From positions 1 to 40,129 of the forward strand of contig SCQK01000006.1 of NCBI GenBank assembly GCA_004321885.1: a stretch of DNA of 40,129 nucleotides. Direction: 5' to 3'. Under the pieces are notes generated by a model. The model was not told the DNA's origin. It searched no databases and saw only the letters and a list, made by a program, of their open reading frames with translations. This DNA comes from Patescibacteria group bacterium (GTDB taxonomy: Bacteria; Patescibacteriota; Patescibacteriia; Magasanikbacterales; GWA2-37-8). This document shows, in pieces, positions 608 to 39,795 of the stretch; position 1 is the stretch's first letter, and each line of letters opens with the position of its first letter. The translations under genes were made by a program, and so were the position numbers.

Positions 608-1128
608 TCGCGGCTATCCCCTCCTTTATAAGGAGGGGATTGAGGGGAGGTAATTTTGTTCTTATCCTTCCGAATATCCGCAGCGGGCACAACGTGGGCG
701 CGATTTTTCGCACGGCCGACGGCGCCGGGATTTCAAAATTGTATTTGTGCGGTTACACGCCGCGCCCTCCGCATGTGCAAATTGATAAAGTTTCGTTAGG
801 CGCGGAAAAGTGGATGCCGTGGGAATATCACAGTCAAGCCGGATGCCTGCTTAAAAAATTAAGAAAAGAGGGGTATAATATAGTAGCGTTGGAGCAGACG
901 CCCGCGAGCGGTAATATTTTTCAATGGAAACCAAAATTTCCATTAGCGTTGGTGGTAGGCAACGAAAAGACCGGCGTGTCAAAGCCGCTGTTAAAATTAT
1001 GCGACAGCGCGGTAGAGATTCCGATGGCCGGCAAAAAGAGCAGTTTGAACGTCAGCGTGGCCGCCGGAGTGGCGATGTACTTCGTTAATTCCCCTCCCCT
1101 TTATAAGGGGAGGGTTAGGGAGGGGTAG
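586..1128 (+). CDS. SpoU/TrmH-family RNA 2'-O-methyltransferase
   Basis: ORF 568..1128 (GTG); the first ATG is at 586. Motifs VLILPNIRSGHNVGAIFRTADGAGISKLYL and C-terminal LNVSVAAGVAMYF are typical of SPOUT methylases. An N-proximal segment (618-650) and the last 12 codons (1091-1128) are copies of palindromic element A read in-frame, so the true start and end are uncertain. Confidence 0.75.
   Translation: MGKKDSVVAAIPSFIRRGLRGGNFVLILPNIRSGHNVGAIFRTADGAGISKLYLCGYTPRPPHVQIDKVSLGAEKWMPWEYHSQAGCLLKKLRKEGYNIVALEQTPASGNIFQWKPKFPLALVVGNEKTGVSKPLLKLCDSAVEIPMAGKKSSLNVSVAAGVAMYFVNSPPLYKGRVREG
618..650. repeat. palindromic element A, copy A1 (CCCCTCCTTTATAAGGAGGGG + GAGGGGAGG)
   Basis: Perfect inverted repeat 618-638; lies inside the 5' region of the SpoU ORF, 11 nt after the ruvC stop. 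Confidence 0.8.
1091..1128. repeat. palindromic element A, copy A2
   Basis: CCCCTCCCCTTTATAAGGGGAGGG + TTAGGGAGGGGTAG; forms the last 12 codons and stop of the SpoU ORF and the SD of the next gene. Confidence 0.8.
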
Positions 1129-4077: not shown

Positions 4078-4173
4078 TCCAGTTTAGTTGTTCCTTCCTC
4101 TTTCCCGTTCGTTCGCGAACGGGATCCCACTTGAGTTTTTATAATGATGAAGATTCAAGTGGGATGAAAAACT

Positions 4174-4205
4174 CCACCCTTTATTCCTCCCCTATAAGGG
4201 GAGGG
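4174..4205. repeat. palindromic element A, copy A3
   Basis: CCTCCCCTATAAGGGGAGG core (4186-4204), 15 nt from element B1. Confidence 0.75.
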
Positions 4206-4212
4206 ATTTGGT

Positions 4213-5232
4213 TTAAGCAAGGGATTGCTTCGTCGCTTCGCTCCTCGCAATGACAGTAGAAGGTTTAATGGTTGAGAATTTGGCCAGCATTTTTTTGATA
4301 CCATTTTTATCCAAGATTCCTTTGAGCGAGCCGACTTCGGAAATCACTCCGCAACTATTAGCGATGCCCCAGCTTAGGGCGAGCGGGATCTCGTGTCCGT
4401 AAAAGCGAGCCGATAGATACCCGGCCGAAAAAGCGTCGCCGGCGCCGGTTTTGGCCACCACTTTTACCGGAAAACTTTCCAAGCGCCAGACCTCATCCAC
4501 GTTGCCGGCCCAGGCCCCGTTGGCCGCGTCGGTTATTACCACTTCCTTGGCGCCATCATTTAGCAGTTTACGTATCAAACCGGCGACTGATTTGGCTTTG
4601 GCCAACGTCAGGTCGCTGATTTTTTCCGCCTCTTCCAGATTCACTATTAAAACATCGGTTCGTTTCAACATCTCGCGTACTTTTGGCAAGGCGTTTTTAA
4701 TTTGGAAACTGCCCGGATTAAAAGCTAAGCGCGCTGTGCCGTGTTTGTCCAAAAAAGCCAATAATTTTTCTTGCAAATTTTCAAACCCTTCGCTCAAGCT
4801 GGTGTAATAAATCCAGTCAACCGGCGGCACGGTTCGCGGCCAGTCGTATTTTCGTTTTTGATGGTAAGATAAAATAGTGCGTTCGCCCTTGAAATTCAAA
4901 ATAATGGAATAGCGGGTAAGAGTCCTGGGGTCTTGGCTGGTCAAACTTGTGTCCACGTTGTTTTTTTTCAGCTCTTCCAAGATCAGCTTGCCGTTGGCGT
5001 CGGTGCCTAGCGAAGTAATGGCCGCGCATTTGAGCCCCAGCTTGGTAGCGCCCACAGCCACATTAGCCGCGTTGCCTCCGAGTGATTGAAAGCTGCCGGT
5101 AATGGGCACCTTACTGGCGTAGTCCAAACATAACTGACAATTTTCGTGATTAACATCGCATTGGACCGTTGCGTCATCTATAAAAACATGAGTGTCAATC
5201 ACCGCGTCGCCGATGGTAATGAGGTTGTACAT
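4213..5232 (-). CDS. PfkB-family carbohydrate kinase (ribokinase-like)
   Basis: 339 aa; N-terminal GxxxxD and C-terminal TGAGDAFSAGYL PfkB signatures; SD GGGAGGGG (part of element A4) 7 nt upstream of the ATG; the last ~13 codons (VIARSEATKQSLA) are encoded by palindromic element B1, so the native C-terminus is probably shorter. Confidence 0.8.
   Translation of the reverse strand: MYNLITIGDAVIDTHVFIDDATVQCDVNHENCQLCLDYASKVPITGSFQSLGGNAANVAVGATKLGLKCAAITSLGTDANGKLILEELKKNNVDTSLTSQDPRTLTRYSIILNFKGERTILSYHQKRKYDWPRTVPPVDWIYYTSLSEGFENLQEKLLAFLDKHGTARLAFNPGSFQIKNALPKVREMLKRTDVLIVNLEEAEKISDLTLAKAKSVAGLIRKLLNDGAKEVVITDAANGAWAGNVDEVWRLESFPVKVVAKTGAGDAFSAGYLSARFYGHEIPLALSWGIANSCGVISEVGSLKGILDKNGIKKMLAKFSTIKPSTVIARSEATKQSLA
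4221..4256. repeat. palindromic element B, copy B1 (one arm)
   Basis: GGGATTGCTTCGTCGCTTCGCTCCTCGCAATGACAG; forms the C-terminal codons of the PfkB kinase ORF. Confidence 0.75.
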
Positions 5233-5239
5233 ATATTTA

Positions 5240-5297
5240 CCCCTCCCTCGCCCTCCTCCCGAAACAAGTTCGGGACAAGCTCTTGTAAAGGGGAGGG
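5240..5297. repeat. palindromic element A, copy A4 (with an internal 25-nt insertion forming its own hairpins)
   Basis: CCCCTCCCTCGCCCTCCTCCC-GAAACAAGTTCGGGACAAGCTCTTG-TAAAGGGGAGGG; supplies the SD for the PfkB kinase (minus strand). Confidence 0.7.
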
Positions 5298-5304
5298 TAA
5301 TTGT

Positions 5305-6252
5305 TTACCCTTTCCATTTATTAAGATATTCAATGGCCGCCAGGGCCGCAATAATCCCCTGCCCGGTGGAGATGCCGATTTGTTTGTAGGGGATATTGGT
5401 CACGTCGCCGGCCGCGAAAATACCCGGGCAGTTGGTGCGGCATTTGTAGTCCACCACGATTTGTCCGATTTTATCTTTTTCAACGCAGTCAATGAATTGT
5501 GAATTGGGAATCTGGCCGGCGTGCACCATTACACCCTGGACTTCAATCGTTTTTTCTTTTCCTTTCGCGTCCGCGTATTTCAGTCCGCTCACTCTGCCTT
5601 CACCGACTATTTCCTCGGTTGTGGCCCCGTAAATTATTTCCACATTGGACAGTTCTTTTACTTTGTCTATCAAGATATTTTCGCCCTTTGGAAAGCCGCC
5701 GCTTGTTTCCGGCGTGTTCTGGTATTTGCTGATTAAAAAAACTTTTTTGGCCAAATGCGTCATCATCAGCGCTGATTCCAATGCCGCGTTGCCCGAACCG
5801 ACAGTGGCCGTAACCTTGCCCTTAAACAGCGGCCCGTCGCAAACAGTGCAATAGGTAACGCCTTTTTGGTACAATTCTTTTTCACCCGGCACTTTCAAAT
5901 GGCGCGGGTGAATGCCCGTGGCGATAATCACGGTTTTGGTTTCGTATTTTTTTTCTTCGCCCTTGGTGTTTTTGACGATGACAACGTGATGTTTTTTTTG
6001 CGGTTCAATGCTTTCCACGCGCCAGCCCTCGTCTATTTTCACGCCATAAAATTTCACGTGCTCATTGAATTTTCGCGCCAATTCAAATCCTTGGATTTCA
6101 AGAATACCGGGCCAGTTGTTGACTACGCCGGACAGGGCCACTTCGCCGCCGATGTTATCGGTGACGATTTTGAAATTAAGTTTCCGGCGCGCCGCGTAAA
6201 TGGCCGCGCTGCTGCCGGCCGCCGCCGCGCCGATGATTAGCAGGTCTAACAT
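5305..6252 (-). CDS. trxB: thioredoxin-disulfide reductase
   Basis: 315 aa; FAD motif GAAAAGSSAAIY, redox-active CTVCDG, NADPH GxGxxA motif. Confidence 0.85.
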   Translation of the reverse strand: MLDLLIIGAAAAGSSAAIYAARRKLNFKIVTDNIGGEVALSGVVNNWPGILEIQGFELARKFNEHVKFYGVKIDEGWRVESIEPQKKHHVVIVKNTKGEEKKYETKTVIIATGIHPRHLKVPGEKELYQKGVTYCTVCDGPLFKGKVTATVGSGNAALESALMMTHLAKKVFLISKYQNTPETSGGFPKGENILIDKVKELSNVEIIYGATTEEIVGEGRVSGLKYADAKGKEKTIEVQGVMVHAGQIPNSQFIDCVEKDKIGQIVVDYKCRTNCPGIFAAGDVTNIPYKQIGISTGQGIIAALAAIEYLNKWKG

Positions 6253-6911
6253 ATATTTGTCATTGCAGTGAGCTCTTTATACGTTTTTTTAATGTCTTTC
6301 GCCATCACAAGGGCGCTGCCGACGCAGAAAATATCCACGCCCCATGATTTTATTTCGGCGATGTTGCTACTTTTAATCCCCCCGTCCACGGCGATGAGCG
6401 GCCGATACCCCCTCCCCTGTCCTCCCTCTAAAAGGGGGAGGGAAACCAATGTCTTAACTTTCTCTTTCACCTCGGGCAGAAATTTCGCTCCTTGTTTGCC
6501 CGGGCGCACTGTTAGAAACAAAACCAAATCCACTAAATTCAAATATGGCTCTATGGCCGACAGCGGCGTTTCCGGATTAAGAGCGATGCCCGCTTGCCAG
6601 CAGTTACCATGGATGGCGGCGATGATTTTTTCGGGATCGTCAGCTGTTTCAATATGAAATATCACCCGAAAAACATTTTTTACTTCTTTCCATTTTTCCA
6701 TTTCCGCCAGCGGGTCGGCCGCCATCAAATGCAATTCCCATTTCAAACCGCTTTTCAGGCCGTTGATTTTTTCAATATCGCCGAATGATTTATTCGGCAC
6801 AAAGACCCCGTCCATCACGTCTATCTGGGCGTAATCGCAGACGCCTTTCAGTTTTTTCGCTTGCGTCGCGAATTCGTCAAAAGAGGAAACAAGTATGGTC
6901 GGGATAATCAT
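6246..6911 (-). CDS. rpe: ribulose-phosphate 3-epimerase
   Basis: 221 aa; IIPTILVSSF...IDVMDGVFVPN motif and C-terminal VDGGIK; an in-frame copy of element A (6408-6444) encodes an inserted LEGGQGRGYRP segment. Confidence 0.8.
   Translation of the reverse strand: MIIPTILVSSFDEFATQAKKLKGVCDYAQIDVMDGVFVPNKSFGDIEKINGLKSGLKWELHLMAADPLAEMEKWKEVKNVFRVIFHIETADDPEKIIAAIHGNCWQAGIALNPETPLSAIEPYLNLVDLVLFLTVRPGKQGAKFLPEVKEKVKTLVSLPLLEGGQGRGYRPLIAVDGGIKSSNIAEIKSWGVDIFCVGSALVMAKDIKKTYKELTAMTNIC
6408..6444. repeat. palindromic element A, copy A5, in-frame inside rpe
   Basis: CCCCCTCCCCTGTCCTCCCTCTAAAAGGGGGAGGG; translated on the minus strand as LEGGQGRGYRP within ribulose-phosphate epimerase. Confidence 0.75.
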
Positions 6912-6912
6912 A

Positions 6913-7353
6913 CTATTCAGCCGTCTGTATTTTATTCAATCTGCGTTTGTATCTGTCTTCGCCGCTAAACTCGGTTTTCAAAAATGTTTTCACAATAGCG
7001 GCCGCGTGTTCGTCGGAAAGTATTTTTCCAGCCAAGCATAACACGTTGGCGTTGTTGTCCCGGCGCCCCATTTCCACGCCTTTGATGTTGTAGCCCAAAA
7101 TCGCCCGCACGTCGCGCACCTTGTTGGCCGCGATGCACATTCCCTGCCCGCTGGCGCATATCAAAATGCCGAAATTGTCGTCGTCTTTCGCCACTTCTTC
7201 GGCCAAAGGCAAAGCAAAGTCCGGGTAATCGTCGGTTTCCACGTATTCACCGGCGCCCATGTCTTTGGCCTCTATGTTTAGCTCGTTTTTCATGTAGCGC
7301 AAGAGATGTTTTTTGAGTTGATAGCCGCCGTGGTCGGCCGCGATGTAGATCAT
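6913..7353 (-). CDS. rpiB: ribose-5-phosphate isomerase B
   Basis: 146 aa; IAADHGG and ICASGQGMCIAANK motifs of RpiB/LacAB; 1-nt spacing to rpe. Confidence 0.85.
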   Translation of the reverse strand: MIYIAADHGGYQLKKHLLRYMKNELNIEAKDMGAGEYVETDDYPDFALPLAEEVAKDDDNFGILICASGQGMCIAANKVRDVRAILGYNIKGVEMGRRDNNANVLCLAGKILSDEHAAAIVKTFLKTEFSGEDRYKRRLNKIQTAE

Positions 7354-7390
7354 AGTGTTGGTATATTATTGTATTCATTGTACCTTTTTC

Positions 7391-7419
7391 TTGACTATTG
7401 TTCAAGCTTGCATATATTA
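7391..7419 (+). promoter_or_regulatory. putative sigma70 promoter for the CBS gene
   Basis: TTGACT at 7391-7396, ~16-17-nt spacer, TATATT/TATTAT -10; divergent from rpiB. Confidence 0.4.
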
Positions 7420-7455
7420 TACCTGTATAGGGCCATAATTTTTAATTTTAATCGT

Positions 7456-7908
7456 ATGCGAGTAGCAGACATCATGGAAAAAAATGTGATTACCGTGACC
7501 AAGGATACGCCATACGAGGAAGTGGCGAAAATTTTGTACGAGCATAATATCAGCGGGGTGCCGGTTTTGGATGAAGGCGAAAAAATAGTCGGCATTGTTT
7601 CGGAAAAAGATATTTACCGCGTGTTGTATCCATATTATAAAAGTTATTACGAACACCCGGAGAGTTACACGGATTTGGAAGAACGGGAATGCAAGGCCAG
7701 CGAAATTAAGGACCATCGCGCCGAGGTGTTTATGTCAAAAAACGTGGTGCCGATCAAGCCCGAGGACCCGGTGATGCTGGCCGGCTCCATCATGCTGGCT
7801 AAAAACATCAGCCGGTTACCGGTGGTGGAAAGCGGCAAGGTGGTGGGCATTATCAGCCGCAAGATGATCTACCGCGCGATTTTGAAAAGATGTTTTGACT
7901 TTAAGTGA
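7456..7908 (+). CDS. CBS-domain pair protein
   Basis: ORF 7306..7908; internal ATG at 7456 (MRVADIMEKNVITV...) begins two tandem CBS motifs (ISGVPVLDEGEKIVGIVSEKDI ... ISRLPVVESGKVVGIISRKMI); the upstream 50 codons are AT-rich promoter sequence. Confidence 0.75.
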   Translation: MRVADIMEKNVITVTKDTPYEEVAKILYEHNISGVPVLDEGEKIVGIVSEKDIYRVLYPYYKSYYEHPESYTDLEERECKASEIKDHRAEVFMSKNVVPIKPEDPVMLAGSIMLAKNISRLPVVESGKVVGIISRKMIYRAILKRCFDFK

Positions 7909-8005
7909 GGCCTTTACTTTTAATTATAAACAGGTAAAATACGAGCGGTAGCCGCAGGCTACTGTTTTTGAACCCAAAAAACAGACCAGAAGAGGAGAGG
8001 ATACA

Positions 8006-9046
8006 ATGGACCGGATGCCAAAGATTGCTTTGATAGTGGGGAGCGGCGGGTTTGAAGGGCAGGAGGGGTTCGCGGAGGAGTGGCGGTTTTACCCGCTGAC
8101 GCCATTTGGCTGGCCATCGGCTCCGATTAAGGTCGGCCTGTTCAATGGCGTCAGAATCGCTCTGGTTCTGCGTCATGGCGAAGGGCACACCTTGCTGCCA
8201 TCCGAGGTGCCGTATCAAGCGAACATCTATGCCCTGAAAATGCTGGGCGTTGATACGGTCGTGGCTCTCACCACTGTCGGCAGTTTGGACAGAAGGTTCA
8301 AGCCTGGCGACCTCGCTATCGTGCGGCAGATGGTGGACCACACCAATGGCCGGCCGTCCACGTTCTTTGGACGGGGAATCGCGGCGCATGTTGTCATGGC
8401 TGACCCAGTGTGCCCTCACATGTCCGACCTGTTGTACCAGACGGCGAAGTTCTGCGGTCTGGTGCACATTCGGAAAGCCGTTGAAACCGCTCTGCATGAC
8501 AGTGCGGTTCTCAAGGTGATGGAGGGGCCGGCATTTTCCACCGGCGCCGAGTCGCAGATGAATTACAGAAACCCTCTGCCAAATCTCATCGGCATGACGG
8601 CCATGCCCGAGGTCAAGCTGTTTCGCGAGGCCGAGATGCGCGTGGTCTATCTGGCGATAATCACCGACAACGACTGTTGGTGCGAAAGGGATGTGGTCAG
8701 CGCTGGATTGGTGGCGGAGAACTCGGGCAAAGTGAGTCCGATCGTGCGTAAGCTGCTGGCTCGGGTGCTCGTGGCGTTCCAAGCCAAAAGGAAGTGGCTG
8801 GCCCGAAGGAAACGTCGGCCAGACAGATGTTCTTGTGTGTCGGCGTTGGACGGTCCGGCCATCGCGACCGACTTGGCCCACATCAGCGATGGGGTGAAGC
8901 GCCGTCTGCATCCGATTCTCAAGCGTCGGCTTGCGCTGGGGAGTAAGGAGCAGTTACCCAGCATCAGTTCGGAAGAGATGTGTCTGGAGCGTCTGGCACA
9001 TTCCCGGGTCAGGCCGAAGCTGGCGGCCGACATGCAACAGCAGTAG
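8006..9046 (+). CDS. mtnP: S-methyl-5'-thioadenosine phosphorylase-like (PNP/MTAP family) with a basic C-terminal extension
   Basis: 346 aa; RHGEGHTLLPSEVPYQANIYALKMLGVDTVVALTTVGSL, MEGPAFSTGAESQMNYR and MTAMPEVKLFREAE..Y..I..TDNDCW match MTAP/PNP-II signatures; the C-terminal ~90 aa are Arg/Lys-rich and not part of the canonical fold; the segment is GC-rich. Confidence 0.75.
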   Translation: MDRMPKIALIVGSGGFEGQEGFAEEWRFYPLTPFGWPSAPIKVGLFNGVRIALVLRHGEGHTLLPSEVPYQANIYALKMLGVDTVVALTTVGSLDRRFKPGDLAIVRQMVDHTNGRPSTFFGRGIAAHVVMADPVCPHMSDLLYQTAKFCGLVHIRKAVETALHDSAVLKVMEGPAFSTGAESQMNYRNPLPNLIGMTAMPEVKLFREAEMRVVYLAIITDNDCWCERDVVSAGLVAENSGKVSPIVRKLLARVLVAFQAKRKWLARRKRRPDRCSCVSALDGPAIATDLAHISDGVKRRLHPILKRRLALGSKEQLPSISSEEMCLERLAHSRVRPKLAADMQQQ

Positions 9047-9135: not shown

Positions 9136-9164
9136 TTGACAAAAAGCGTCAAAAATCATATAAT
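9136..9164 (+). promoter_or_regulatory. consensus sigma70 promoter for ileS
   Basis: TTGACA (9136-9141), 17-nt spacer, TATAAT (9159-9164). Confidence 0.6.
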
Positions 9165-9175
9165 TCTATCAATTA

Positions 9176-9208
9176 CCCCTCCTTAATCCTCCCCTTATTA
9201 AGGGGAGG
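9176..9208. repeat. palindromic element A, copy A6 (SD of ileS)
   Basis: CCCCTCCTTAATCCTCCCCTTATTAAGGGGAGG; GGAGG lies 6 nt before the ileS ATG. Confidence 0.8.
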
Positions 9209-9214
9209 AAAAAT

Positions 9215-12145
9215 ATGCTTTACGACGCGAACAAAAACGAACAGGAAATTTTGGACTTTTGGGACAAAGACAAAATTTTTGAAAAGTCCGTCAACGAGCG
9301 GCCCGAGAACAAGCCGTATGTTTTTTATGATGGTCCGCCTTTCGCCACCGGTCTGCCGCATTACGGGCATTTTGTGCCCTCGCTCATGAAAGACATTGTG
9401 CCGCGTTATTTCACCATGCGCGGGTATCGCGTTGAGCGCAAGTGGGGCTGGGATTGCCACGGTTTGCCCGTGGAAAATATTATAGAAAGAGAATTGAACT
9501 TAAACAGCAAGAAAGATATAGAAAATTTTGGCATAGATAAATTCAACGAGGCCTGCCGCGCCACAGTTTTACGCTACGCCGAAGAATGGAAAAAAACCAT
9601 CAAGCGCATGGGCCGCTGGGTGGACATGGAAAACGATTACAAAACCATGGATTTGTCTTATATGGAAAGCGTCTGGTGGGTTTTCAAACAGCTTTGGGAT
9701 AAAAGTTTAATTTACAAAGGCCACAAAGCCATGCACATTTGTCCGCGTTGCGTCACCCCGCTTTCCAATTTTGAGGTAACGCAGAATTATAAAGACATTA
9801 AGGATATATCAATCACGGTAAAATTTAGAATAAAAAATCCGCAAAAACTTGATTTGCCGGCCGATTCGTATGTCTTGGCTTGGACGACCACTCCATGGAC
9901 CCTGCCTGGCAATGTGCTGCTCGCCGTGAATGAAACAATAGAATACGCGTTGGCGCATTTGGTTGGAGAAGAAACCGCGTATATTGTTGCCAAAGACAGG
10001 ATAGAAAAAGTGATGGGCGATAAAAAATACGGAATTTTGAAACATGTGGCCGGGGCTGATTTGGCTGGTCTGGAATATGAGCCGCTGTTTCCGTATTTTA
10101 GCGACACAGCCAACGCTTTCCGCGTGGTGGCCGCTGATTTCGTGTCCACCGCAGACGGTACCGGCGTGGTGCATATCGCGCCCGCGTTCGGCGAAGACGA
10201 CTACAACGTTGGAAAGCAAGAAAACATACCTTTGGTCCAGCATGTCACCATGGAAGGCAAGTTCAAAGACCAGGTAAAGGATTTTGCCGGTTTGGAAGTC
10301 AAGCCCAAAGAAGAGCCGGCAAAAACCGACGTGGAAATAATAAAATGGCTGGCGCGCGCGGGCAAGCTTTTTAGCAAAGAAAAAATTGAGCACAGCTATC
10401 CTTTTTGCTGGCGTTGCGATACGCCCCTGCTCAATTACGCCGCCACCAGCTGGTTCGTGAAGGTGGCGCAAATGAAGGAAGCGCTTTTGAAAAATAATGA
10501 GCAGATAAATTGGGTGCCCGGGCATATCAAACAAGGCCGTTTTGGCCTGTGGCTGGAGAACGCGCGCGACTGGGCTATTTCCCGCAACCGTTATTGGGGC
10601 ACGCCGCTGCCGGTGTGGGAATGCCGGCAGGAAAATTGCGGCGGCGCGGTCGCGCTCGGCTCGGTGGCCGAGTTTGAAAAATTGGCCGGTCAGAAAATTT
10701 CCGATTTACACAAACATATAATTGACAAGATAGAGTTTGATTGTCCGCAGTGTGGCGGAAAAATGAAGAGAATCCCCGAGGTGCTGGATTGCTGGTTTGA
10801 ATCCGGCTCCATGCCTTACGGCCAAAAGCATTACCCTTTTGAAAACAAGGCAAAGTTTGAAGCCGGTTTTCCGGCCGAGTTTATCGCCGAAGCCCAGGAC
10901 CAGACCCGCGGCTGGTTTTACACCCTTCATGTTTTGGCCACAGCGCTTACCGGAGCGCCTCATTCGGCGATTCCGTCCAAACAAAGCGCGCCCGCATTTA
11001 AGAATGTGATAGTCAACGGCATGGTACTGGCCGAGGACGGTAAAAAAATGAGTAAGCGCTTAAGAAATTATCCCGAGCCGGATGTGGTGATGGAGAAATA
11101 CGGCGCCGACGCCATGCGCTATTATTTGGCGACTGCGCCGGTGATGTCCGCCGAGTCAATTAATTTTTCCGAAGACGGAGTGCGGGAAATGTACAACAAG
11201 GTTTTGAATACCCTGTGGAATGTGGAGGAATTTTATCTGATGTATGCGGGCGCCAAGTTGGAAAAGAAATTCAGGCCCGAGCATGTTTTGGACAGATGGA
11301 TTTTAGCGAAGCTGCAAGCGCTGTCAGAAGATGTTACCCGCGGTATGGGCAGCTACCGGCTGGTAGACGCCAGCCGTCCGATTATGGGGTTTATCGCCGA
11401 GCTGTCGCAGTGGTACGTGCGCCGCTCGCGCGATCGGTTCAAGGGTGACGACCAAAAAGACAAAGAGCAGGCCCTTAATACTTTATATGTCGTTCTCAAC
11501 ACACTGGCGAAGGTAATGGCGCCGTTTACGCCCTTTATCGCTGAAAAGGTTTACCGTGATTTGGGCGGCGAGGGGTCGGTGCATTTGCAGGCCTGGCCCG
11601 AAGCGGACAAAAAGTTAGCCGACAACGATGTACTAACTGAAATGGCCGTGGCGCGCAAGGTAGTGGAGCTGGGGCTGGCCTTGCGGGTCGAGCAGGGCAT
11701 CAAAGTAAAACAGCCACTTAAAAAATTGCTGGTGATGAGCTATAAATTGAATAGTGAATTGCGCGAGCTCGTGGCCGAAGAATTGAACGTGAAAAAGGTG
11801 GAATTGGCGAAAGGCATGGAGCATGAAGAAGGCGTGATTTGGAAAGAGGAAGGGCAGCTGAAGGTTGGGCTGGATATGGTAATTGACGAAGCATTGAAAA
11901 AAGAAGGTCTGGCGCGCGAGGCGGTGCGAGCCATAAACCAGATTCGTAAGGACAACAAGCTGACTATCAGCGATGTGGTTGTCGTGAAGTATCACACTAC
12001 GGACAGACAACTGCTGGCGGTGTTTGGCGACTTCGCCGAAGAGATAAAAAAGAGCGTGCTGGCCAAGGAATTGTTTGAGACAGAGGAAGAGGGGATGCGA
12101 GAAGTGGATATCGGCGGCGCGAAATTAAAATTAAAAATAGAATAA
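9215..12145 (+). CDS. ileS: isoleucine--tRNA ligase (type 2)
   Basis: 976 aa; class I HIGH variant PHYGH, KMSKR motif (KMSKRLRNYPEP), editing-domain and anticodon-binding regions; SD GGAGG 6 nt upstream, supplied by element A6. Confidence 0.95.
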   Translation: MLYDANKNEQEILDFWDKDKIFEKSVNERPENKPYVFYDGPPFATGLPHYGHFVPSLMKDIVPRYFTMRGYRVERKWGWDCHGLPVENIIERELNLNSKKDIENFGIDKFNEACRATVLRYAEEWKKTIKRMGRWVDMENDYKTMDLSYMESVWWVFKQLWDKSLIYKGHKAMHICPRCVTPLSNFEVTQNYKDIKDISITVKFRIKNPQKLDLPADSYVLAWTTTPWTLPGNVLLAVNETIEYALAHLVGEETAYIVAKDRIEKVMGDKKYGILKHVAGADLAGLEYEPLFPYFSDTANAFRVVAADFVSTADGTGVVHIAPAFGEDDYNVGKQENIPLVQHVTMEGKFKDQVKDFAGLEVKPKEEPAKTDVEIIKWLARAGKLFSKEKIEHSYPFCWRCDTPLLNYAATSWFVKVAQMKEALLKNNEQINWVPGHIKQGRFGLWLENARDWAISRNRYWGTPLPVWECRQENCGGAVALGSVAEFEKLAGQKISDLHKHIIDKIEFDCPQCGGKMKRIPEVLDCWFESGSMPYGQKHYPFENKAKFEAGFPAEFIAEAQDQTRGWFYTLHVLATALTGAPHSAIPSKQSAPAFKNVIVNGMVLAEDGKKMSKRLRNYPEPDVVMEKYGADAMRYYLATAPVMSAESINFSEDGVREMYNKVLNTLWNVEEFYLMYAGAKLEKKFRPEHVLDRWILAKLQALSEDVTRGMGSYRLVDASRPIMGFIAELSQWYVRRSRDRFKGDDQKDKEQALNTLYVVLNTLAKVMAPFTPFIAEKVYRDLGGEGSVHLQAWPEADKKLADNDVLTEMAVARKVVELGLALRVEQGIKVKQPLKKLLVMSYKLNSELRELVAEELNVKKVELAKGMEHEEGVIWKEEGQLKVGLDMVIDEALKKEGLAREAVRAINQIRKDNKLTISDVVVVKYHTTDRQLLAVFGDFAEEIKKSVLAKELFETEEEGMREVDIGGAKLKLKIE

Positions 12146-14153: not shown

Positions 14154-14225
14154 GCGGGTGTAGCACAATGGTTAGTGCGTGTGCTTGCCAAGCATAAGAC
14201 GAGGGTTCGATTCCCTTCACCCGCT
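14154..14225 (+). tRNA. tRNA-Gly (anticodon GCC)
   Basis: Acceptor GCGGGTG/CACCCGC, D-arm GCAC..GTGC, anticodon loop TTGCCAA, T-loop GGTTCGATTCC. Confidence 0.8.
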
Positions 14226-14226
14226 C

Positions 14227-14299
14227 AGCGGGGTAGAGCAACTGGCAGCTCGCAGGGCCCATAACCCTGAGGTTCCCGGTTCAAGTCCGGGCCCCGCAA
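14227..14299 (+). tRNA. initiator tRNA-fMet (anticodon CAT)
   Basis: Anticodon loop CCCATAA; three consecutive G:C pairs closing the anticodon stem (GGG/CCC), a 1:72 A*A mismatch and an A11:U24 pair, all hallmarks of bacterial initiator tRNA; starts 1-2 nt after tRNA-Gly. Confidence 0.75.
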
Positions 14300-14307
14300 C
14301 AACGTAG

Positions 14308-14364
14308 GACGAGCGGAAGTGTTCCGCCTCTGTTCTGACATGGTCAATCCATGCCAACAACGAG
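14308..14364 (+). repeat. direct repeat DR1 (~55 bp) bounding the Fic cassette, immediately 3' of tRNA-fMet
   Basis: GACGAGCGGAAGTGTTCCGCCTCTGTTCTGACATGGTCAATCCATGCCAACAACGAG; ~90% identical to DR2; contains the inner palindrome GCGGAAgtgTTCCGC. Confidence 0.7.
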
Positions 14365-14469
14365 TAGGCTAACGATGACCCTCAGAACGAGGGTCATTTG
14401 GTTTCAGATTAGTCAGCAACTCTTGACCTATCTTATATAATCATATATACTCAAAATATAAGATGATAT

Positions 14470-15549
14470 ATGCTGAGAATCCAAAATCGCGGCCGGGGGA
14501 ATCGCCTTGACCGCCGACTAGCCAATCTTCCGTCCGGAGTCTGGTCCAAAATCGCGCAGGTAGATGAACTTAAGGGCCAGTGGATTGCCGGGGCTGAACT
14601 TTCGTCCCAGGTTTTGGGCCGCTTAAAGCGGTCGGTTTTGATTACCTCCGCCGGTGCTTCTACTCGCATTGAAGGCGCGCGACTATCCGACGAAGACGTC
14701 GAAAAAATGATGCGCGGCATTGATATTCAGAAATTCAGAGATCGTGACAAGCAAGAAGTGAAAGGGTATCATGAGCTTCTGGGGAATATGTTTGATTCTT
14801 GGAAGAGTTTGCAGTTCTCCGAGAACGCCATCAAACATTGTCACAAAGAACTCCTCAAATATGTGGAGAAAGACGAGGCGCATCGGGGCAGATACAAGAA
14901 GCAAGAGAATCGCGTGCAGATGGTAAATGCGGCCGGACAACCCGTGAGCGTGCTTTTTGATACCACACCGGCATATTTGGCGCCCAAAGAAACGCAGGAG
15001 CTCGCACAGTGGACGCGGAAGGCTCTGGAAACCGGCCAACATCATCCGTTGTTAGTCATCGGTAACTTTGTCGTTGAGTTCTTGGCCATCCATCCTTTCA
15101 CCGATGGTAACGGGCGTCTGTCGCGCGTTCTCACCAATCTGCTATTGCTCAAAGCGGGGTACCTTTATGTTCCATACGTATCGCACGAGAAGCTCATCGA
15201 GGACAACAAGCCAGATTACTATGTAGCCCTGCGGCGCAGCCAGAGGACGTTCAGGTCAAAGAGAGAAGACATTGCCCCGTGGCTCCATTTTTTTCTGGAT
15301 GTCGCGTTCAAGCAGGCGCAAATGGCGGTTGACTTGCTGTCCAAAGAAAACATTGAAAAACTGTTATCGCCAAAGCAACTGCAAGTCTGGCAGTACTTGC
15401 AGGGAGTAATTGAAGCGACAGCCGGAAAGATAGCCAAAGCCACAGGCGTCGCGCGTCCAACTATCAACCAGGCAGTGGACAAGCTCTTACGCTTGAAGAA
15501 GGTGGAACGCATCGGCCTTGGGCCCACGACAAGATACCGGAAGTTATGA
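14470..15549 (+). CDS. fic: Fic/DOC family protein with a C-terminal winged-HTH
   Basis: 359 aa; canonical Fic motif HPFTDGNGRLSR; C-terminal KIAKATGVARPTINQAVDKLLRLKKVERIG HTH; GC-rich relative to the genome. Confidence 0.85.
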   Translation: MLRIQNRGRGNRLDRRLANLPSGVWSKIAQVDELKGQWIAGAELSSQVLGRLKRSVLITSAGASTRIEGARLSDEDVEKMMRGIDIQKFRDRDKQEVKGYHELLGNMFDSWKSLQFSENAIKHCHKELLKYVEKDEAHRGRYKKQENRVQMVNAAGQPVSVLFDTTPAYLAPKETQELAQWTRKALETGQHHPLLVIGNFVVEFLAIHPFTDGNGRLSRVLTNLLLLKAGYLYVPYVSHEKLIEDNKPDYYVALRRSQRTFRSKREDIAPWLHFFLDVAFKQAQMAVDLLSKENIEKLLSPKQLQVWQYLQGVIEATAGKIAKATGVARPTINQAVDKLLRLKKVERIGLGPTTRYRKL

Positions 15550-15604
15550 CGAGCGGAAGTATTCCGCCTCTGTTCTCTGACATGGTTAATCCATGCCAAC
15601 GACG
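15548..15604 (+). repeat. direct repeat DR2
   Basis: GACGAGCGGAAGTATTCCGCCTCTGTTCTCTGACATGGTTAATCCATGCCAACGACGG; starts at the Fic stop codon; followed by a degenerate partial copy GGGCGGAAGTATTTCGCCGCTCG (15608-15632). Confidence 0.7.
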
Positions 15605-15705
15605 GATGGGCGGAAGTATTTCGCCGCTCGCCACAGGGCAGATTGGCCAATCATAGATTAAAGGGCATCGTATTAGACACCCTTTTGTTGTCCGCATAAA
15701 TCAAA

Positions 15706-25414: not shown

Positions 25415-25425
25415 AATTGCGTTTT

Positions 25426-25460
25426 CTCTCCCCTTGATAAGGGGAGAGCGAGAGAGGGGT
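25426..25460. repeat. palindromic element A, copy A7 (upstream of ruvB)
   Basis: CTCTCCCCTTGATAAGGGGAGAG + CGAGAGAGGGGT. Confidence 0.7.
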
Positions 25461-25487
25461 AAAAACTACTATCATTATATCCCATAC

Positions 25488-26442: not shown

Positions 26443-26667
26443 ATGAATGTAGCTCTCAATATCAAAAATTTATTATGGGATGTTGACGCAAAAAAAGTGG
26501 ATGCAAGCAAACACAAAAGTTTTTTAATTTCGCGAATTTCTGAAAAAGGCGGTACGCGAGAAATAGCCTGGTTGCGCCGCCAATATTCGGATAAAGACAT
26601 CAAGAAAATCGTGGCGAAAAGCCGCAATGTTTCGGCAAAGACAAAAAATTTTTGGAAGCTGTTTTAA
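26443..26667 (+). CDS. small protein (74 aa) translationally coupled to the AbiEii-like nucleotidyltransferase; putative antitoxin/partner
   Basis: Lys-rich 74-aa ORF directly downstream of a consensus promoter; its stop TAA is immediately followed by the ATG of the next gene (TAATATG). Confidence 0.5.
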   Translation: MNVALNIKNLLWDVDAKKVDASKHKSFLISRISEKGGTREIAWLRRQYSDKDIKKIVAKSRNVSAKTKNFWKLF

Positions 26668-26668
26668 T

Positions 26669-27298
26669 ATGTTTTATCCAGAGGCGCTGACCGCGGAATC
26701 AATCGCTTTAATAAAAAAAATTAATGCGAGCAAATGGCTGTCTGATTTTTATTTGGCCGGCGGTACGGGTTTGGCTTTATGGTATGGCCATCGGCAATCG
26801 GTTGATTTGGATTTTTTTAGAAAAAGCGATATTGCCACCAAGCAATTGATAAAAAAATTGTCTTCGCTCGGCAGATTCAAATTATTGAATGAAGAAGAAA
26901 ACACGGTGGAGGGGATACTGGAAAAGGTGAAAGTTAGTTTCATGACTTATCCGTATGGTTTGTTGCGCAAGCGTCAGCCGTATGATGGCGTTATCTTTTT
27001 AGCAGAACCATTGGATATCGCCGTCATGAAAGTCGGAGCGATCGCCGACAGAAATACGAAGAAAGATTTTATTGACCTGTATGTTTTTTTACGGCGCGAG
27101 AACATGAGTTTAAAAAATTTGTTATCGCATCTGCGAAAAAAATTCAGCCGCGTGAATTACGATATTTTTCATTTATACAAATCCCTTGTCTATTTTGAGG
27201 ATGCCGACAAAGAACCTATGCCGAGGATGTTTATTGATTTAAAATGGGAAAAGGTCAGGCGATTTTTTAAAGACGAGGTTAGGAAGCTGGTGGCATGA
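26669..27298 (+). CDS. nucleotidyltransferase of the AbiEii/AbiGii (DUF1814-like) toxin family
   Basis: ORF 26627..27298, start re-chosen at 26669; LAGGTGLALWYGHRQSVDLDFF matches the GGTAL..HR.S.DLDF nucleotidyltransferase signature of AbiEii-type proteins. Confidence 0.6.
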   Translation: MFYPEALTAESIALIKKINASKWLSDFYLAGGTGLALWYGHRQSVDLDFFRKSDIATKQLIKKLSSLGRFKLLNEEENTVEGILEKVKVSFMTYPYGLLRKRQPYDGVIFLAEPLDIAVMKVGAIADRNTKKDFIDLYVFLRRENMSLKNLLSHLRKKFSRVNYDIFHLYKSLVYFEDADKEPMPRMFIDLKWEKVRRFFKDEVRKLVA

Positions 27299-31772: not shown

Positions 31773-31828
31773 GTTGCCGCAACAATATCACAAATTAAAG
31801 CGCGGATCAAGGACACCGCTGCGATTTT

Positions 31829-31837
31829 ATGATATAA
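31829..31837 (+). promoter_or_regulatory. extended -10 promoter (TGaTATAAT) for the pilin-like cluster
   Basis: TGnTATAAT ~60 nt upstream of the 31899 ATG; element A8 lies between the promoter and the start codon. Confidence 0.4.
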
Positions 31838-31850
31838 TGTTAGCGCATAT

Positions 31851-31884
31851 ACCCCTCCCTCGCCCTCCCCTTATAAAGGGGAGG
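31851..31884. repeat. palindromic element A, copy A8 (upstream of the pilin cluster)
   Basis: CCCCTCCCTCGCCCTCCCCTTATAAAGGGGAGGG. Confidence 0.8.
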
Positions 31885-31898
31885 GATAAACCCATTTC

Positions 31899-33704
31899 AT
31901 GCCAAGGAGAGATAGAAAAAAAATCGCGCGCGGATTTAGTTTGTTGGAAGTGGTGCTTTCCGTCGGCATTTTTGTTTTGTTCGCTTTTGGCATTTACGGC
32001 GGCATCAATTTGATATTCAAAATTGTTTACCAGTCGCGCATGCGCATTTTAGAAACCGCGATTTTGGCCGAGAAATTGGAAATCGCGCGCAACCTGCCCT
32101 TTGACAGCGTGGGCATAATAAACGGCTCGCCCGCGGGCCTGCTGCCCCACACCACGACCACCATCAGAAACGGGCAGGTCTTCACCCTAATTACCACGGT
32201 GAGAAACATAGACGACCCTTTTGACGGCCTGGCCGGCGGCTCGCCCAACGACACTTCGCCGGCTGATTACAAGTTAGTGGAAATTTCCGCCATTTGTCAG
32301 ACCTGTCTGCAAAAAATCCCGGTAATTTTAAGCACCACTGTGGCGCCGAAAAATTTGGAAGGCGCCACCAGCAACGGCTCGCTTTTTATTCAGGTGTTTG
32401 ACGCCCAGGGTTTGCCCGTGGTCGGCGCCAATGTGAGCGCCACCAATACCGCGCGCGCGCCAAACGTGGTGATACAAGACACCACCGACAATACCGGCTG
32501 GCTAAAAATTATAGACACCACCACCGGCACGCAAAGCTATTATATTTCCGTCACTAAAAACGGCTTTTCGCGCGATTATTCGGTTGACGCGGCTTCCATA
32601 GGGGCCACGCCCATCAAGCCTCCGTCCACAGTTGTTACTCAAACCGTCACCGAGGTTAGTTTTTCCATAGACCGCGTCGGCTCAATGAATTTACACACCA
32701 TCAATTCAGGCTGTTCGGCCATCGCCAATGCCGATTTTAATATCAGAAGCGAACGGCTCCTTGGCACTAATCCGGATGTTTACAAATACAATCAAAATTT
32801 AACCACGAACGGCTCGGGCAATTACGCCTTTGCCAGCATGGAATGGGGCAAATATCATTTCAGCGCCACCAATACGCCCTATGATATCGCCGGCTCCATT
32901 CCCATGCTGCCGGCGGATTTGGCGCCGGGCGCGGCCCAGGACGTCTCTTTGATTTTAACCTCGCAATCCCCCAATTCATTGCTGGTGAAAGTAAAAGACG
33001 CGGGTACTGGCCTGCCGCTTTCCGACACGTTGGTTCATCTTACCAAAAGCGGCTATGATGAAAGTAAAACAACCGGTTATGGATTTATGCGCCAAACCGA
33101 TTGGTCCGGCGGAAGCGGCCAGGTAACCAGCACAGACCCGGCGCGCTATTTTGCCGATGACACCAACGTGGACAACAATTCTCCGGCCGGGGATTTGAAA
33201 TTAAAAAAAGCCGGCCCTGATTATCTAAACAGCGGCTGGCTGGAGTCTTCCACTTTTGATCTGCAAACGCAAGTTGATTTTCATAGTTTAATTTTTCAGC
33301 CGGTCACCCAGCCGCCGCAGACCGGGACCGAACCCATAAAATTTCAGATGGCCGCCACCAATACCCCCAGTTCCAGCGGCTGGGTTTATCTGGGCCCGGA
33401 CGGCGCCACCAGCACTTATTATGTTTCCACCAGCAGTTTGGTGTGGAGCGGCTTGGATAACAATCGCTATCTGCGTTACAAAGTATTTTTGAGCACGGCT
33501 GACACAGGCTATACTCCATTGCTGTCCGAAGTCTCCATCACCTATACCAATAACTGCGTGCCGCCCGGGCAGGTGTTTTTTGGCGGGCTTGGCGCCGGCA
33601 GTTACACATTGGAAGTTTCGCGAAATGGCTATATCACCAACAGCGGGCTGGTGGATGTGGCCGGCGCCACCGACGCGGTGGTAAATTTGTCTCCGAATAT
33701 ATGA
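31899..33704 (+). CDS. large type IV pilin-like protein (prepilin-type N-terminal cleavage/methylation domain)
   Basis: 601 aa; class III signal KKIARG|FSLLEVVLSVGIFVLFAF with Gly-1 and Glu+5, then a Thr/Ser/Asn/Gly-rich beta-type region of ~550 aa. Confidence 0.75.
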   Translation: MPRRDRKKIARGFSLLEVVLSVGIFVLFAFGIYGGINLIFKIVYQSRMRILETAILAEKLEIARNLPFDSVGIINGSPAGLLPHTTTTIRNGQVFTLITTVRNIDDPFDGLAGGSPNDTSPADYKLVEISAICQTCLQKIPVILSTTVAPKNLEGATSNGSLFIQVFDAQGLPVVGANVSATNTARAPNVVIQDTTDNTGWLKIIDTTTGTQSYYISVTKNGFSRDYSVDAASIGATPIKPPSTVVTQTVTEVSFSIDRVGSMNLHTINSGCSAIANADFNIRSERLLGTNPDVYKYNQNLTTNGSGNYAFASMEWGKYHFSATNTPYDIAGSIPMLPADLAPGAAQDVSLILTSQSPNSLLVKVKDAGTGLPLSDTLVHLTKSGYDESKTTGYGFMRQTDWSGGSGQVTSTDPARYFADDTNVDNNSPAGDLKLKKAGPDYLNSGWLESSTFDLQTQVDFHSLIFQPVTQPPQTGTEPIKFQMAATNTPSSSGWVYLGPDGATSTYYVSTSSLVWSGLDNNRYLRYKVFLSTADTGYTPLLSEVSITYTNNCVPPGQVFFGGLGAGSYTLEVSRNGYITNSGLVDVAGATDAVVNLSPNI

Positions 33705-33713
33705 GTATTATCC

Positions 33714-33799
33714 CTGTCATTGCGAGGACCCGCCCAGGGCGGGGACGAAGCAATCTCTTGCAATTACGCATGGGATTGCTTCGCTTCGCTCGCAATGAC
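33714..33799. repeat. palindromic element B, complete copy B4 (both arms)
   Basis: GTCATTGCGAG-GACCCGCCCAGGGCGGGGAC-GAAGCAATC ... GGATTGCTTCGCTTCGCTCGCAATGAC; the arms are reverse complements; lies between pilin genes 1 and 2. Confidence 0.8.
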
Positions 33800-34390
33800 A
33801 TGCGCGGCATCACGGTCGTGGAAGTGCTGGTGGCCGTGGCGCTTTTTGGTTTTTTGATAGTTTCCATCGCCTGGATTTTTTTGACCAGCTGGAAATCAAA
33901 CAGCATTGTTTGGGAACAGCTGGCCACGCAAAACGAGGGCCGCAAAGCCACCCAGGATTTTGTCAATGAACTGCGCACGGCTTCGGCTTCAAGCGGCGGG
34001 GCCTATGCCATAGAATCAGCCGCCACCTCATCCATAGTTTTTTATTCCAACATTGACGCGGACACTTTCAAAGAGCGCGTGCGTTATTTTCTTTCCGGCG
34101 CCACTCTCAAAAAAGGCGTCATCAAGCCGACCGGCGACCCGTTTGTCTACAATCCGGCCAATGAAATCATTACCGAAGTGGCGCACGATGTGGCCATGGC
34201 CGGCGCCCCGATTTTCACGTATTATAATGCAAATTTTAGCGGTTATTCTTCGCCTTTGCCCGCGCCAGTTACCACGACAATGATAAGGGTGGTAAATATC
34301 TCCTTGAAATTAGAAGAGGACCCGCATTTGTCTCCGGCGCCGTTTAACATTGAATCTAAAGTGATGATAAGAAATTTGAAAGACAACTGA
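33800..34390 (+). CDS. prepilin-type pseudopilin/minor pilin
   Basis: ORF 33701..34390; the first 33 codons are the in-frame translation of palindromic element B4; the ATG at 33800 gives MRG|ITVVEVLVAVALFGFLIVSIAW, a canonical prepilin signal with Glu+5. Confidence 0.7.
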   Translation: MRGITVVEVLVAVALFGFLIVSIAWIFLTSWKSNSIVWEQLATQNEGRKATQDFVNELRTASASSGGAYAIESAATSSIVFYSNIDADTFKERVRYFLSGATLKKGVIKPTGDPFVYNPANEIITEVAHDVAMAGAPIFTYYNANFSGYSSPLPAPVTTTMIRVVNISLKLEEDPHLSPAPFNIESKVMIRNLKDN

Positions 34391-38075: not shown

Positions 38076-38086
38076 TTGGTCGGGAA

Positions 38087-38121
38087 TCCCTCCCCTATTA
38101 GGGGAGGGGCAAGGGGAGGGG
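38087..38121. repeat. palindromic element A, copy A9 (SD of TrbC-like paralog 1)
   Basis: CCCTCCCCTATTAGGGGAGGG + GCAAGGGGAGGGG, 7 nt before the ATG at 38128. Confidence 0.8.
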
Positions 38122-38127
38122 TATTTT

Positions 38128-39688: not shown

Positions 39689-39709
39689 TGGGAAAAGTGG
39701 TATACTATT

Positions 39710-39795
39710 GTCATTGCGAGCAAAGCGAAGCAATCCCATACATAATTGCAAGGGATTGCCGCGCCCCGACGTGACGTCGGGGCTCGCAATGACAG
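39710..39795. repeat. palindromic element B, complete copy B5
   Basis: GTCATTGCGAGCAAAGCGAAGCAATCCC ... GGGATTGCCGCGCCCCGACGTGACGTCGGGGCTCGCAATGACAG; lies between TrbC-like paralogs 3 and 4. Confidence 0.8.

Follow-up and report, generated by a model that had tools for sequence, protein, structure and literature searches.

How does the reading frame of a housekeeping enzyme come to run, unbroken, through a copy of a short repeated palindrome, and is that copy anything more than a passenger? The question is raised by the ribulose-phosphate 3-epimerase gene (rpe) on contig SCQK01000006.1 of a Patescibacteria group bacterium (GCA_004321885.1, Magasanikbacterales), of which a stretch of 40,129 nucleotides, here called the window, was analysed. 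Within rpe lies a segment that resembles a small repeat, referred to as element A, which is also dispersed between the genes of the window. The in-frame colonisation of essential genes by tiny palindromes is known in Rickettsia and for some repetitive extragenic palindromic (REP) sequences; here it is encountered in the candidate phyla radiation (CPR, or Patescibacteria). CPR bacteria have reduced genomes that are usually described as streamlined. The answer that we consider probable, and hold with good confidence, is that positions 6405-6443 are an old and decayed copy of the small non-autonomous repeat A, inserted in frame into a loop of Rpe after the split from the nearest sampled relative, and likely a neutral passenger there.

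The rpe segment as a member of the element A family

Element A occurs in nine copies within the 40 kb, seven of them fully intergenic, one lying over the 3' end of a gene for a SpoU-type methylase and one in rpe. The element is about 36-39 nt long and its window consensus is TA-CCCCTCCC-(TAA/TCG)-CCCTCCCCTT-ATA-AAGGGGAGGG, that is, a terminal TA followed by three boxes separated by short spacers. In rpe the plus strand from 6406 to 6446 reads TA-CCCCCTCCCC-TGT-CCTCCCTCT-AAAA-GGGGGAGGG-AAAC, and in the protein the context is ...KEKVKTLV-SLPLLEGGQGRGY-RPLIAVDGGIK. A first-pass annotation of this DNA had stated that the rpe frame stays open through a copy of element A, giving its peptide and the flanking conserved blocks, and translation agrees with it on all of these points.

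Assignment of the segment to the family, also claimed at that stage, is borne out by a profile hidden Markov model built from six intergenic window copies, with the rpe copy left out. Searched with nhmmer, this profile recovers the rpe copy at 6407-6445 over model positions 2-39 (E=1.5e-4, 17.5 bits), and in 30 dinucleotide-shuffled versions of the window it returns no match at E<=0.01. The chance expectation of an exact 34-mer of element A is zero. The family resemblance extends to the peptide, where SLPLLEGGQGRG of the insert matches the frame-1 translation of the family, SLPFIRGGLGRG, as found at loci L097 and L101. The rpe copy is nonetheless the most diverged of the full-length members, and the description of it as a GC-rich hairpin holds for its membership of the family and only partly for its form. 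The hairpin is imperfect, with an inner stem of 6 bp, and the fold predicted for the mRNA by RNAfold joins the two outer boxes at -21.7 kcal/mol with a z-score of only -0.7, a low value because any shuffle of that composition, with its run of C and run of G, folds well.

Insertion or ancestral loop?

Does the segment represent something gained, or a loop that Rpe has always possessed? A search space of 5.8 billion proteins returned the window protein itself, annotated as "Patescibacteria group bacterium", together with a 209-aa ortholog, P0002, which is 84% identical to the window Rpe by BLASTP and 87% identical in the alignment. In a neighbour-joining tree P0001 and P0002 are sisters. The gene for P0002 (L001, from Logan run SRR8426596) is the closest ortholog, with ~90% nucleotide identity, and is without 27 nt at the position of the insert. 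Comparison at the codon level shows that 13 codons of the window gene are derived from the element and that ~4 ancestral codons, which encode RLDK in the ortholog, are gone, so that the difference amounts to a net +27 nt or +9 aa and not to the indel of 11-12 aa that had been expected. Across 100 orthologs the spacing between the PG..G and DGG motifs is 30 residues in 66, 34-35 in 24, 39 in two (the window Rpe included) and 51-58 in six. Since the sister ortholog is without the segment and most orthologs have the short loop, the long loop is taken to be derived, and the alignment of orthologs, which had been proposed as a check, supports the view that the rpe segment is an insertion and not an ancestral loop.

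The host enzyme and the position of the insert

The enzyme that carries the insert resembles other Rpe proteins in sequence and in predicted fold. The Pfam family PF00834 (Ribul_P_3_epim) matches residues 2-201 with E=2e-39, matches to Rpe proteins of the PDB reach E=1.5e-29, and an AlphaFold model made from a 35-sequence alignment has a mean predicted local distance difference test score (pLDDT) of 93.4 and a predicted template modelling score (pTM) of 0.91. Between this model and the crystal structures 2fli, 3ovp and 5umf Foldseek gives a template modelling score (TM) of 0.85. With the loop left out, the ratio of nonsynonymous to synonymous divergence (dN/dS) between the window rpe and L001 is 0.067 over 195 codons, at a synonymous divergence (dS) of 0.67, a value that speaks for purifying selection on the window gene. 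The residues D31, D34, H61 and D176, which are invariant in the clade alignment, are all kept. In place of the first His of the H-x-D motif, 35/35 aligned members of the clade have Gln (AQIDVMDG), the corresponding sequence in 2fli being YVHIDIMDG, and this clade-wide substitution of a metal-binding His may reflect an altered coordination of the metal. The gene order rpiB-rpe-trxB-pfkB is conserved in synteny with related loci. The insert-bearing Rpe is probably active.

In the AlphaFold model the insert forms a small two-strand excursion between helix α6 (148-157) and strand β7 (172-176), with the block 161-170 at a pLDDT of 73, below the mean of the model. Modelling, which the first-pass annotation had suggested as a check, thus places the insert in a surface loop of lower confidence. 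In TIM barrels catalysis takes place at the C-terminal ends of the strands, and the loops that lead from helix to strand are on the other face. The model accordingly puts the insert in what appears to be a surface loop on the N-terminal, non-catalytic face of the barrel, and, because the α6-β7 loop is opposite the catalytic face, the position would be a permissive one.

The three-box anatomy of element A

What kind of structure does the element itself encode? Covariation links the three boxes in a set of 66 distinct copies. Boxes 2 and 3 are reverse complements and form the hairpin, and box 1 is the reverse, or mirror image, of box 2, being neither a direct repeat of it nor a second complement. 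The mirror rule fits 23 of 25 informative box combinations and a direct repeat fits 3, and when box 1 is permuted among copies none of 5000 permutations (0/5000) reaches 23 mirror fits, although the variants of the element are related by descent and such covariation counts are not independent events. With the boxes in register, triples of the types C/C/G, T/T/A or A/T/A fill 336 of 352 cells, a number that does not exceed 208 if box 1 is shifted by 1-3 nt, or 242 under a direct-repeat model. The conserved 5' TA fits the same register, and a layout of 10+3+10+3+10 nt accounts for the whole length of the element. Two other descriptions of box 1 and of the G-rich boxes were rejected: box 1 as a direct repeat or alternative Watson-Crick partner, where the direct-repeat fit is at most 69% of cells vs 95% for the mirror, and a G-quadruplex as the conserved feature, where variants such as GGGGAGAA lose the G-tracts and keep the mirror rule.

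Hoogsteen triples take the form C+·G-C and T·A-T, and reverse-Hoogsteen triples the form G·G-C, A·A-T and T·A-T. The layout of element A would suit an intramolecular triple helix, in which the C-rich strand would use the two Hoogsteen triples and the G-rich strand the three reverse-Hoogsteen triples of the purine motif; the alternation of T and A at the interruption of box 1 would be permitted solely by the G-rich-strand scheme. Such a design has a counterpart in H-DNA, where a homopyrimidine mirror repeat stands in register with its homopurine complement, an arrangement that element A shares, but H-DNA is usually discussed in the form of isolated genomic tracts, whereas element A is a dispersed family with three-way covariation. 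That the element is a self-contained triplex module of 36 nt, with a third strand of 10 nt, a 10-bp hairpin and two 3-nt loops, is a tentative proposal, which we think rather doubtful as yet; it draws on the three-way covariation, the spread over phyla and the occurrence both in intergenic leaders and in frame within housekeeping proteins. If it is true, the module would define a class of structured mobile DNA that is new, and its mobilising enzyme might recognise it as folded single-stranded DNA. If the covariation reflects a real triple helix, element A would offer a natural, repeated and evolutionarily tested triplex, and with it a way to study the recognition of very small repeats and their movement between phyla.

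The copy in rpe departs from this anatomy. Its box 2 is decayed, with both the mirror and the Watson-Crick relations broken, and it is among the 2/25 informative variants that violate the mirror rule. As the triplex-type signature has been lost, we read the rpe copy as a tolerated relic that is free of selection at the level of the element.

Recurrent palindromes in the same loop and in other proteins

The loop between α6 and β7 has been struck repeatedly, and by different palindromes. A separate clade of Magasanikbacteria (P0003, P0010, P0014, P0015 and P0023) carries inserts of 21-28 residues that end at the same ...PLIAVDGG boundary; palindromic DNA encodes these inserts too, but its sequence varies among the members. 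In the rpe of L002 the loop contains an inverted pair of two A-like hairpins, in that of L084 a palindrome, TGTCATCCCCGTGAAAACGGGGAT...TTCCCGCTTTCGCGGGAATGACA, and in that of L085 a hairpin, GCCTGCCTG...CAGGCAGG. Either the Rpe loop is exceptionally permissive, or resident palindromes attract further insertions. When the element profile was run against 83 rpe neighbourhoods of GTDB representatives (1.24 Mb) it gave no match at E<=0.01, with weak look-alikes in L021, L019, L016 and L002, and expansion of the family is thus not shared generally by the closest representatives.

Outside the window, 54 loci (396 kb) were retrieved from Joint Genome Institute (JGI) metagenomes by exact scanning with a 34-nt degenerate pattern, and in them the profile finds 99 matches. 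Proteins identified by Pfam carry some of these in frame, for instance a PrmC/HemK homolog (L117) with two in-frame insertion sites, one of them holding a profile-detected doublet, the UvrC of L112 with a doublet, and a WecG/TagA-NUDIX protein with the singlet LPLLNPPLIKGREGW in three samples (L094, L118 and L121). Neighbouring genes place L117 and L133 in Candidatus Magasanikbacteria GW2011_GWC2_37_14 and L118 in Candidatus Falkowbacteria. One WecG ortholog, 75% identical, retains a diverged copy of the insert, PLLNPPLSKGRKEW, and so records an older, shared insertion, and other WecG orthologs have further palindrome-like inserts at the same and at different sites; a search for the canonical WecG insertion site in its empty state at near identity found none, the nearest orthologs being no closer than 82% (alignment) or 73% (BLASTP). 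An alignment of WecG/TagA-NUDIX proteins (A4, Falkowbacteria and relatives) contains lineage-specific repeat-like inserts at several different sites, among them NPPSPSGRGGQGGEG, PPPLRRGTGGGEDLNLN and LPAEA...RRAKAGD. The inserts of this protein family suggest that in-frame colonisation by repeats is widespread. Behaviour of the Rickettsia kind is both real and recurrent in the Magasanikbacteria and Falkowbacteria of the CPR. This affects how "insertions" and lineage-specific loops in CPR proteins are to be read, as both annotation and structure prediction can be misled by them.

The element is also found well outside the CPR (L088, L106, L110 and L119; plasmid hits H1-H19; L141 at 1501-1537; L143 at 61-98). 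Identical copies lie in loci of the Nostocales genera Desmonostoc, Nostoc and Aetokthonos, where element A forms one half of an inverted doublet within a composite repeat of ~130-150 nt, the conserved flanks of which, ~30 nt long, may resemble terminal inverted repeats. A BLAST search of PLSDB places the Nostocales doublet in plasmids of Nostoc, Dolichospermum, Planktothrix and Pseudanabaena, and an element A doublet lies within an annotated polyketide synthase coding sequence of Nostoc. Pelobacter propionicus pPRO2 and a replicon of Photobacterium carry the three-box unit singly. Doublets, with spacers of ~6-16 nt, are present in L112, L116, L117, L133 and the Nostocales loci, and also in the rpe of L002; the window copies are all singlets. 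No match to element A was found in the IMG/VR viral contigs, and no Rfam family matches it.

A probable history, and the alternatives to it

The sequence of events that would best lead to the present gene begins with a canonical element entering the DNA of the α6-β7 loop after the lineage split, perhaps with the loss of 12 nt of target, so that ~4 codons were exchanged for 13 with a net gain of 9. The G-rich strand would have become the coding one, read in a frame free of stops, of which the element has three, the other three meeting a TAA in the loop or spacer. Rpe with the insert would still have folded and worked, and the copy would then have drifted under constraint at the level of the protein. 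It could survive because the frame was free of stops, because its length kept the downstream frame, and because the loop is on the non-catalytic face. To go by the model, the translated insert forms a short hairpin on the surface of Rpe, most likely as a neutral passenger, and its arrival is inferred to have been by transposition-like spread rather than by recombination. Several observations weigh against this history. The identity of the rpe copy to canonical copies is just ~68-76%, a similarity that low complexity inflates; ~20 nt beside the insert cannot be aligned with L001, so that the insertion is not a clean one; no near-identical pair of empty and filled sites was found, and the exact boundaries are hence not fixed; target-site duplication is not evident at the window copies; and none of the 39 ORFs (open reading frames) of the window that were scanned has a transposase domain.

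Some of these same features would be expected if the segment had arrived through templated recombination, gene conversion, repair from another copy or the replacement of an earlier insert, and not by transposition. The poor alignment of the flanks, the ~4 missing ancestral codons and the want of an evident target duplication at the window copies all agree with such an origin, as do the three different palindromes found in one loop within one Rpe clade, which could point to replacement or nesting. The window, however, has no copy with matching flanks that could have served as donor, canonical copies are found in frame in several genomes and in genes unrelated to one another, and a mobile element explains the spread across phyla more easily, such that recombination is judged improbable. 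We attach an equally low probability to the idea that the insert has been recruited for a function, either as an RNA or DNA signal in rpe (a Shine-Dalgarno-like pause or an mRNA-stability hairpin) or in a protein role such as an oligomer contact. Its coding strand does contain GGGAGG/GGGGAGGGGG, the mRNA is predicted to fold with the energy given above, and the insert has been kept while rpe was under purifying selection; moreover 6/8 intergenic window copies end 1-9 nt 5' of a start codon, where the G-rich box can act as a ribosome-binding site. Start-proximal copies (<=30 nt) nevertheless make up only 15/108 overall and 9/99 in the metagenome set, and the copy in rpe is without the conserved mirror and hairpin signature of the family. 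Neither the closest ortholog nor most of the clade has the insert, and the unrelated palindromes seen in the same loop elsewhere fit a permissive site better than a recruited one.

Could the segment instead be an ordinary lineage-specific variable loop, its likeness to element A arising by chance from low complexity? The spacing among Rpe proteins does vary (30, 34-35 or 39 residues), the window loop is only 0-5 aa longer than those of the crystallised Rpe proteins in the PDB, and the fold z-score is not significant. Such a loop would not be expected to give a full-length profile match at E=1.5e-4, with box order, spacers and TA end retained, when shuffles give none, nor to encode a peptide, SLPLLEGGQGRGY, that agrees with the family frame-1 peptide SLPFIRGGLGRG, nor to be missing from the sister ortholog; a chance likeness is thus largely refuted and very unlikely. 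Least credible is an artefact of sequencing or assembly, through collapse of the repeat or a false join within rpe. Assemblers can be led astray by short GC-rich repeats, but the Logan contig L140, assembled independently from run SRR8426592, agrees with window 6204-8467 at every position (100% over 2264 nt), right across the insert, which makes misassembly less likely; in addition the frame is kept, the ORF is complete, and comparable in-frame copies occur in many independent assemblies. A decayed in-frame insertion of element A is therefore preferred to each of these alternatives.

Relation to known repeat systems

The closest precedents for an in-frame insertion of this kind are the Rickettsia palindromic elements, described in the work of Ogata et al. 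(reviewed in PMC10969869 and PMC3733652), which are ~100-150 bp long (PMC10969869), occur only in Rickettsia and have CGTC at one end (PMC3733652). Element A resembles them as a repeated palindrome that is found in frame in unrelated housekeeping genes, is free of stops, is translated and takes up a surface position that fits the fold, and also in belonging to the small genomes of host-dependent bacteria. It differs in its length of about 36-39 nt, its TA start, the pyrimidine/purine bias of its strands, its three-box layout and its presence in several phyla, and it ends TA...GGGA(A) without CGTC, so that length and tag set it apart. The comparison with Rickettsia elements made in the first-pass annotation is consequently apt for behaviour (in frame, surface loop, several housekeeping genes) and fails for membership (length, terminal tag).

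REP sequences provide the second comparison. Short REPs with GTAG or CGTC tags are known within genes, frequently those for repair, in several phyla (PMC3733652), and REPs and the related REPINs, intragenic REPs among them, are mobilised by REP-associated tyrosine transposases (RAYTs; PMC3116915, PMC3733652). Like these, element A is an imperfect palindrome of 20-40 nt with many copies, mostly extragenic and, outside the window, often arranged as inverted doublets ~16 nt apart, and it is occasionally in frame in genes, including the DNA-repair gene for UvrC. Unlike them it has no GTAG/CGTC tag, GTA/TAC being the only conserved part; the element has GGTA followed by a variable base, which gives GTAG in 1/9 window copies, and the window carries no RAYT gene. 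We know of no REP that has been described with a third box mirroring the stem. The RAYT-linked REP of Nostoc punctiforme was considered and rejected, as its sequence is different from that of element A. Elhai et al. reportedly described, in 2008, very small hairpin-bearing dispersed repeats in Nostocales that are often nested in larger repeats, and element A may be one of these. Element A, then, behaves like a Rickettsia element or a REP but does not have the size and the tag by which either is defined.

Searches of the available literature found no report of in-frame palindromic elements in the CPR or of the element A sequence, and searches with the sequence gave unrelated primers only. The earlier statement that the phenomenon is undocumented in the CPR stands to that extent, but in-frame short REPs are already known outside Rickettsia (PMC3733652), which renders the case less unique.

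Copies of element A in the window

The positions of rpe, its insert and the copies of element A are given in Table 1.

Table 1. Positions of rpe, its element-derived segment and the copies of element A in the window.
Feature	Position	Strand	Description	Basis
rpe, ribulose-phosphate 3-epimerase	6246..6911	minus	intact 221-aa ORF, insert-bearing	ORF list, Pfam, PDB, AlphaFold, dN/dS
AQIDVMDG region	6825-6851 (Rpe residues 21-29)	minus		alignment A1
13 element-derived codons, SLPLLEGGQGRGY	6405..6443 (Rpe residues 158-170)	minus	diverged form of recurrent family peptide SLPFIRGGLGRG	
element A copy in rpe	6407..6445	plus	canonical orientation, full length	profile match
TA of rpe copy	6406-6407	plus		
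box 1 of rpe copy, CCCCCTCCCC	6408-6417	plus		
spacer TGT of rpe copy	6418-6420	plus		
box 2 of rpe copy, CCTCCCTCT	6421-6429	plus		
loop AAAA of rpe copy	6430-6433	plus		
box 3 of rpe copy, GGGGGAGGG	6434-6442	plus		
element A copy	614..652	minus	intergenic, ruvC / SpoU-type methylase gene	profile
element A copy	1089..1127	minus	36/37 bases = Nostocales consensus	profile
element A copy	4170..4208	plus	degenerate box 1; between convergent genes	profile
element A copy	5237..5298	plus	extra 33-nt hairpin in loop	profile
element A copy	9174..9213	plus	directly upstream of ileS ATG (9215)	profile
element A copy	25423..25461	minus	upstream of ruvB ATG (25414)	profile
element A copy	31850..31889	plus	upstream of ORF at 31899	profile
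element A copy	38085..38123	minus	solute-binding protein gene / pilin-like ORF at 38128	profile

Several of these copies are intimately associated with the ends of genes. That at 1089-1127 encodes the final 12 residues and the stop (...NSPPLYKGRVREG*) of the SpoU-type methylase and terminates 4 nt ahead of the ATG at 1132. The methylase (186 aa, with a Pfam match that ends at 171) reads into the element over window 1087-1128 (+), its stop codon being made of the terminal TA of element A plus a G, and is, next to rpe, the second window gene for which element A supplies coding sequence. The copy at 5237-5298 lies between trxB and the gene for a PfkB-family kinase, with its G-rich strand stopping 4 nt before the PfkB ATG, and that at 25423-25461 has one variant (the CTCTCCCC type) common to all three boxes.

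Boxes of the TATAAT type, CATATAAT or GATATAAT, end 9-12 nt ahead of three copies (9150-9173, 25462-25486 on the minus strand, and 31826-31849) that themselves stop 1-9 nt short of a start codon, the CATATAAT box ending 9 nt upstream of the copy at 9174-9213 and the GATATAAT box 12 nt upstream of that at 31850-31889. At these three copies the element likely constitutes essentially the whole of the 5' leader, with its G-rich box as the probable ribosome-binding site. As a general donor of ribosome-binding sites element A was rejected, on the start-proximal counts given above.

Other features of the window

A second repeat family, TGTCATTGCGAG...CGAAGCAATCCC, is present at 4209-4252 (-), 33742-33800 and 39709-39767. 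One of its copies encodes the C-terminal tail, ...TVIARSEATKQSLA*, of the PfkB-family kinase (339 aa, with a Pfam match that ends at 301), and the TGTCAT end of the family resembles the palindrome in the rpe of L084. A gene for a Fic-domain protein at 14470..15549 is bracketed by an imperfect direct repeat of ~65 nt (14305-14369 and 15545-15633, 86-94% identical). This repeat stands immediately 3' of two tRNA genes (14154-14299) and resembles the termini of a small integrated element. Genes of the toxin-antitoxin type include a Gp49-like/HTH pair at 2381-2990 and an AbiEii nucleotidyltransferase at 26627-27298. Finally, the isoleucyl-tRNA synthetase of the window (9215-12145) has 976 aa, the syntenic orthologs of L084 (5004-8705) and L085 (3947-7657) have 1233-1236 aa, and a match to the His_Phos_1 (phosphoglycerate-mutase-like) domain lies inside the L084 and L085 synthetases.

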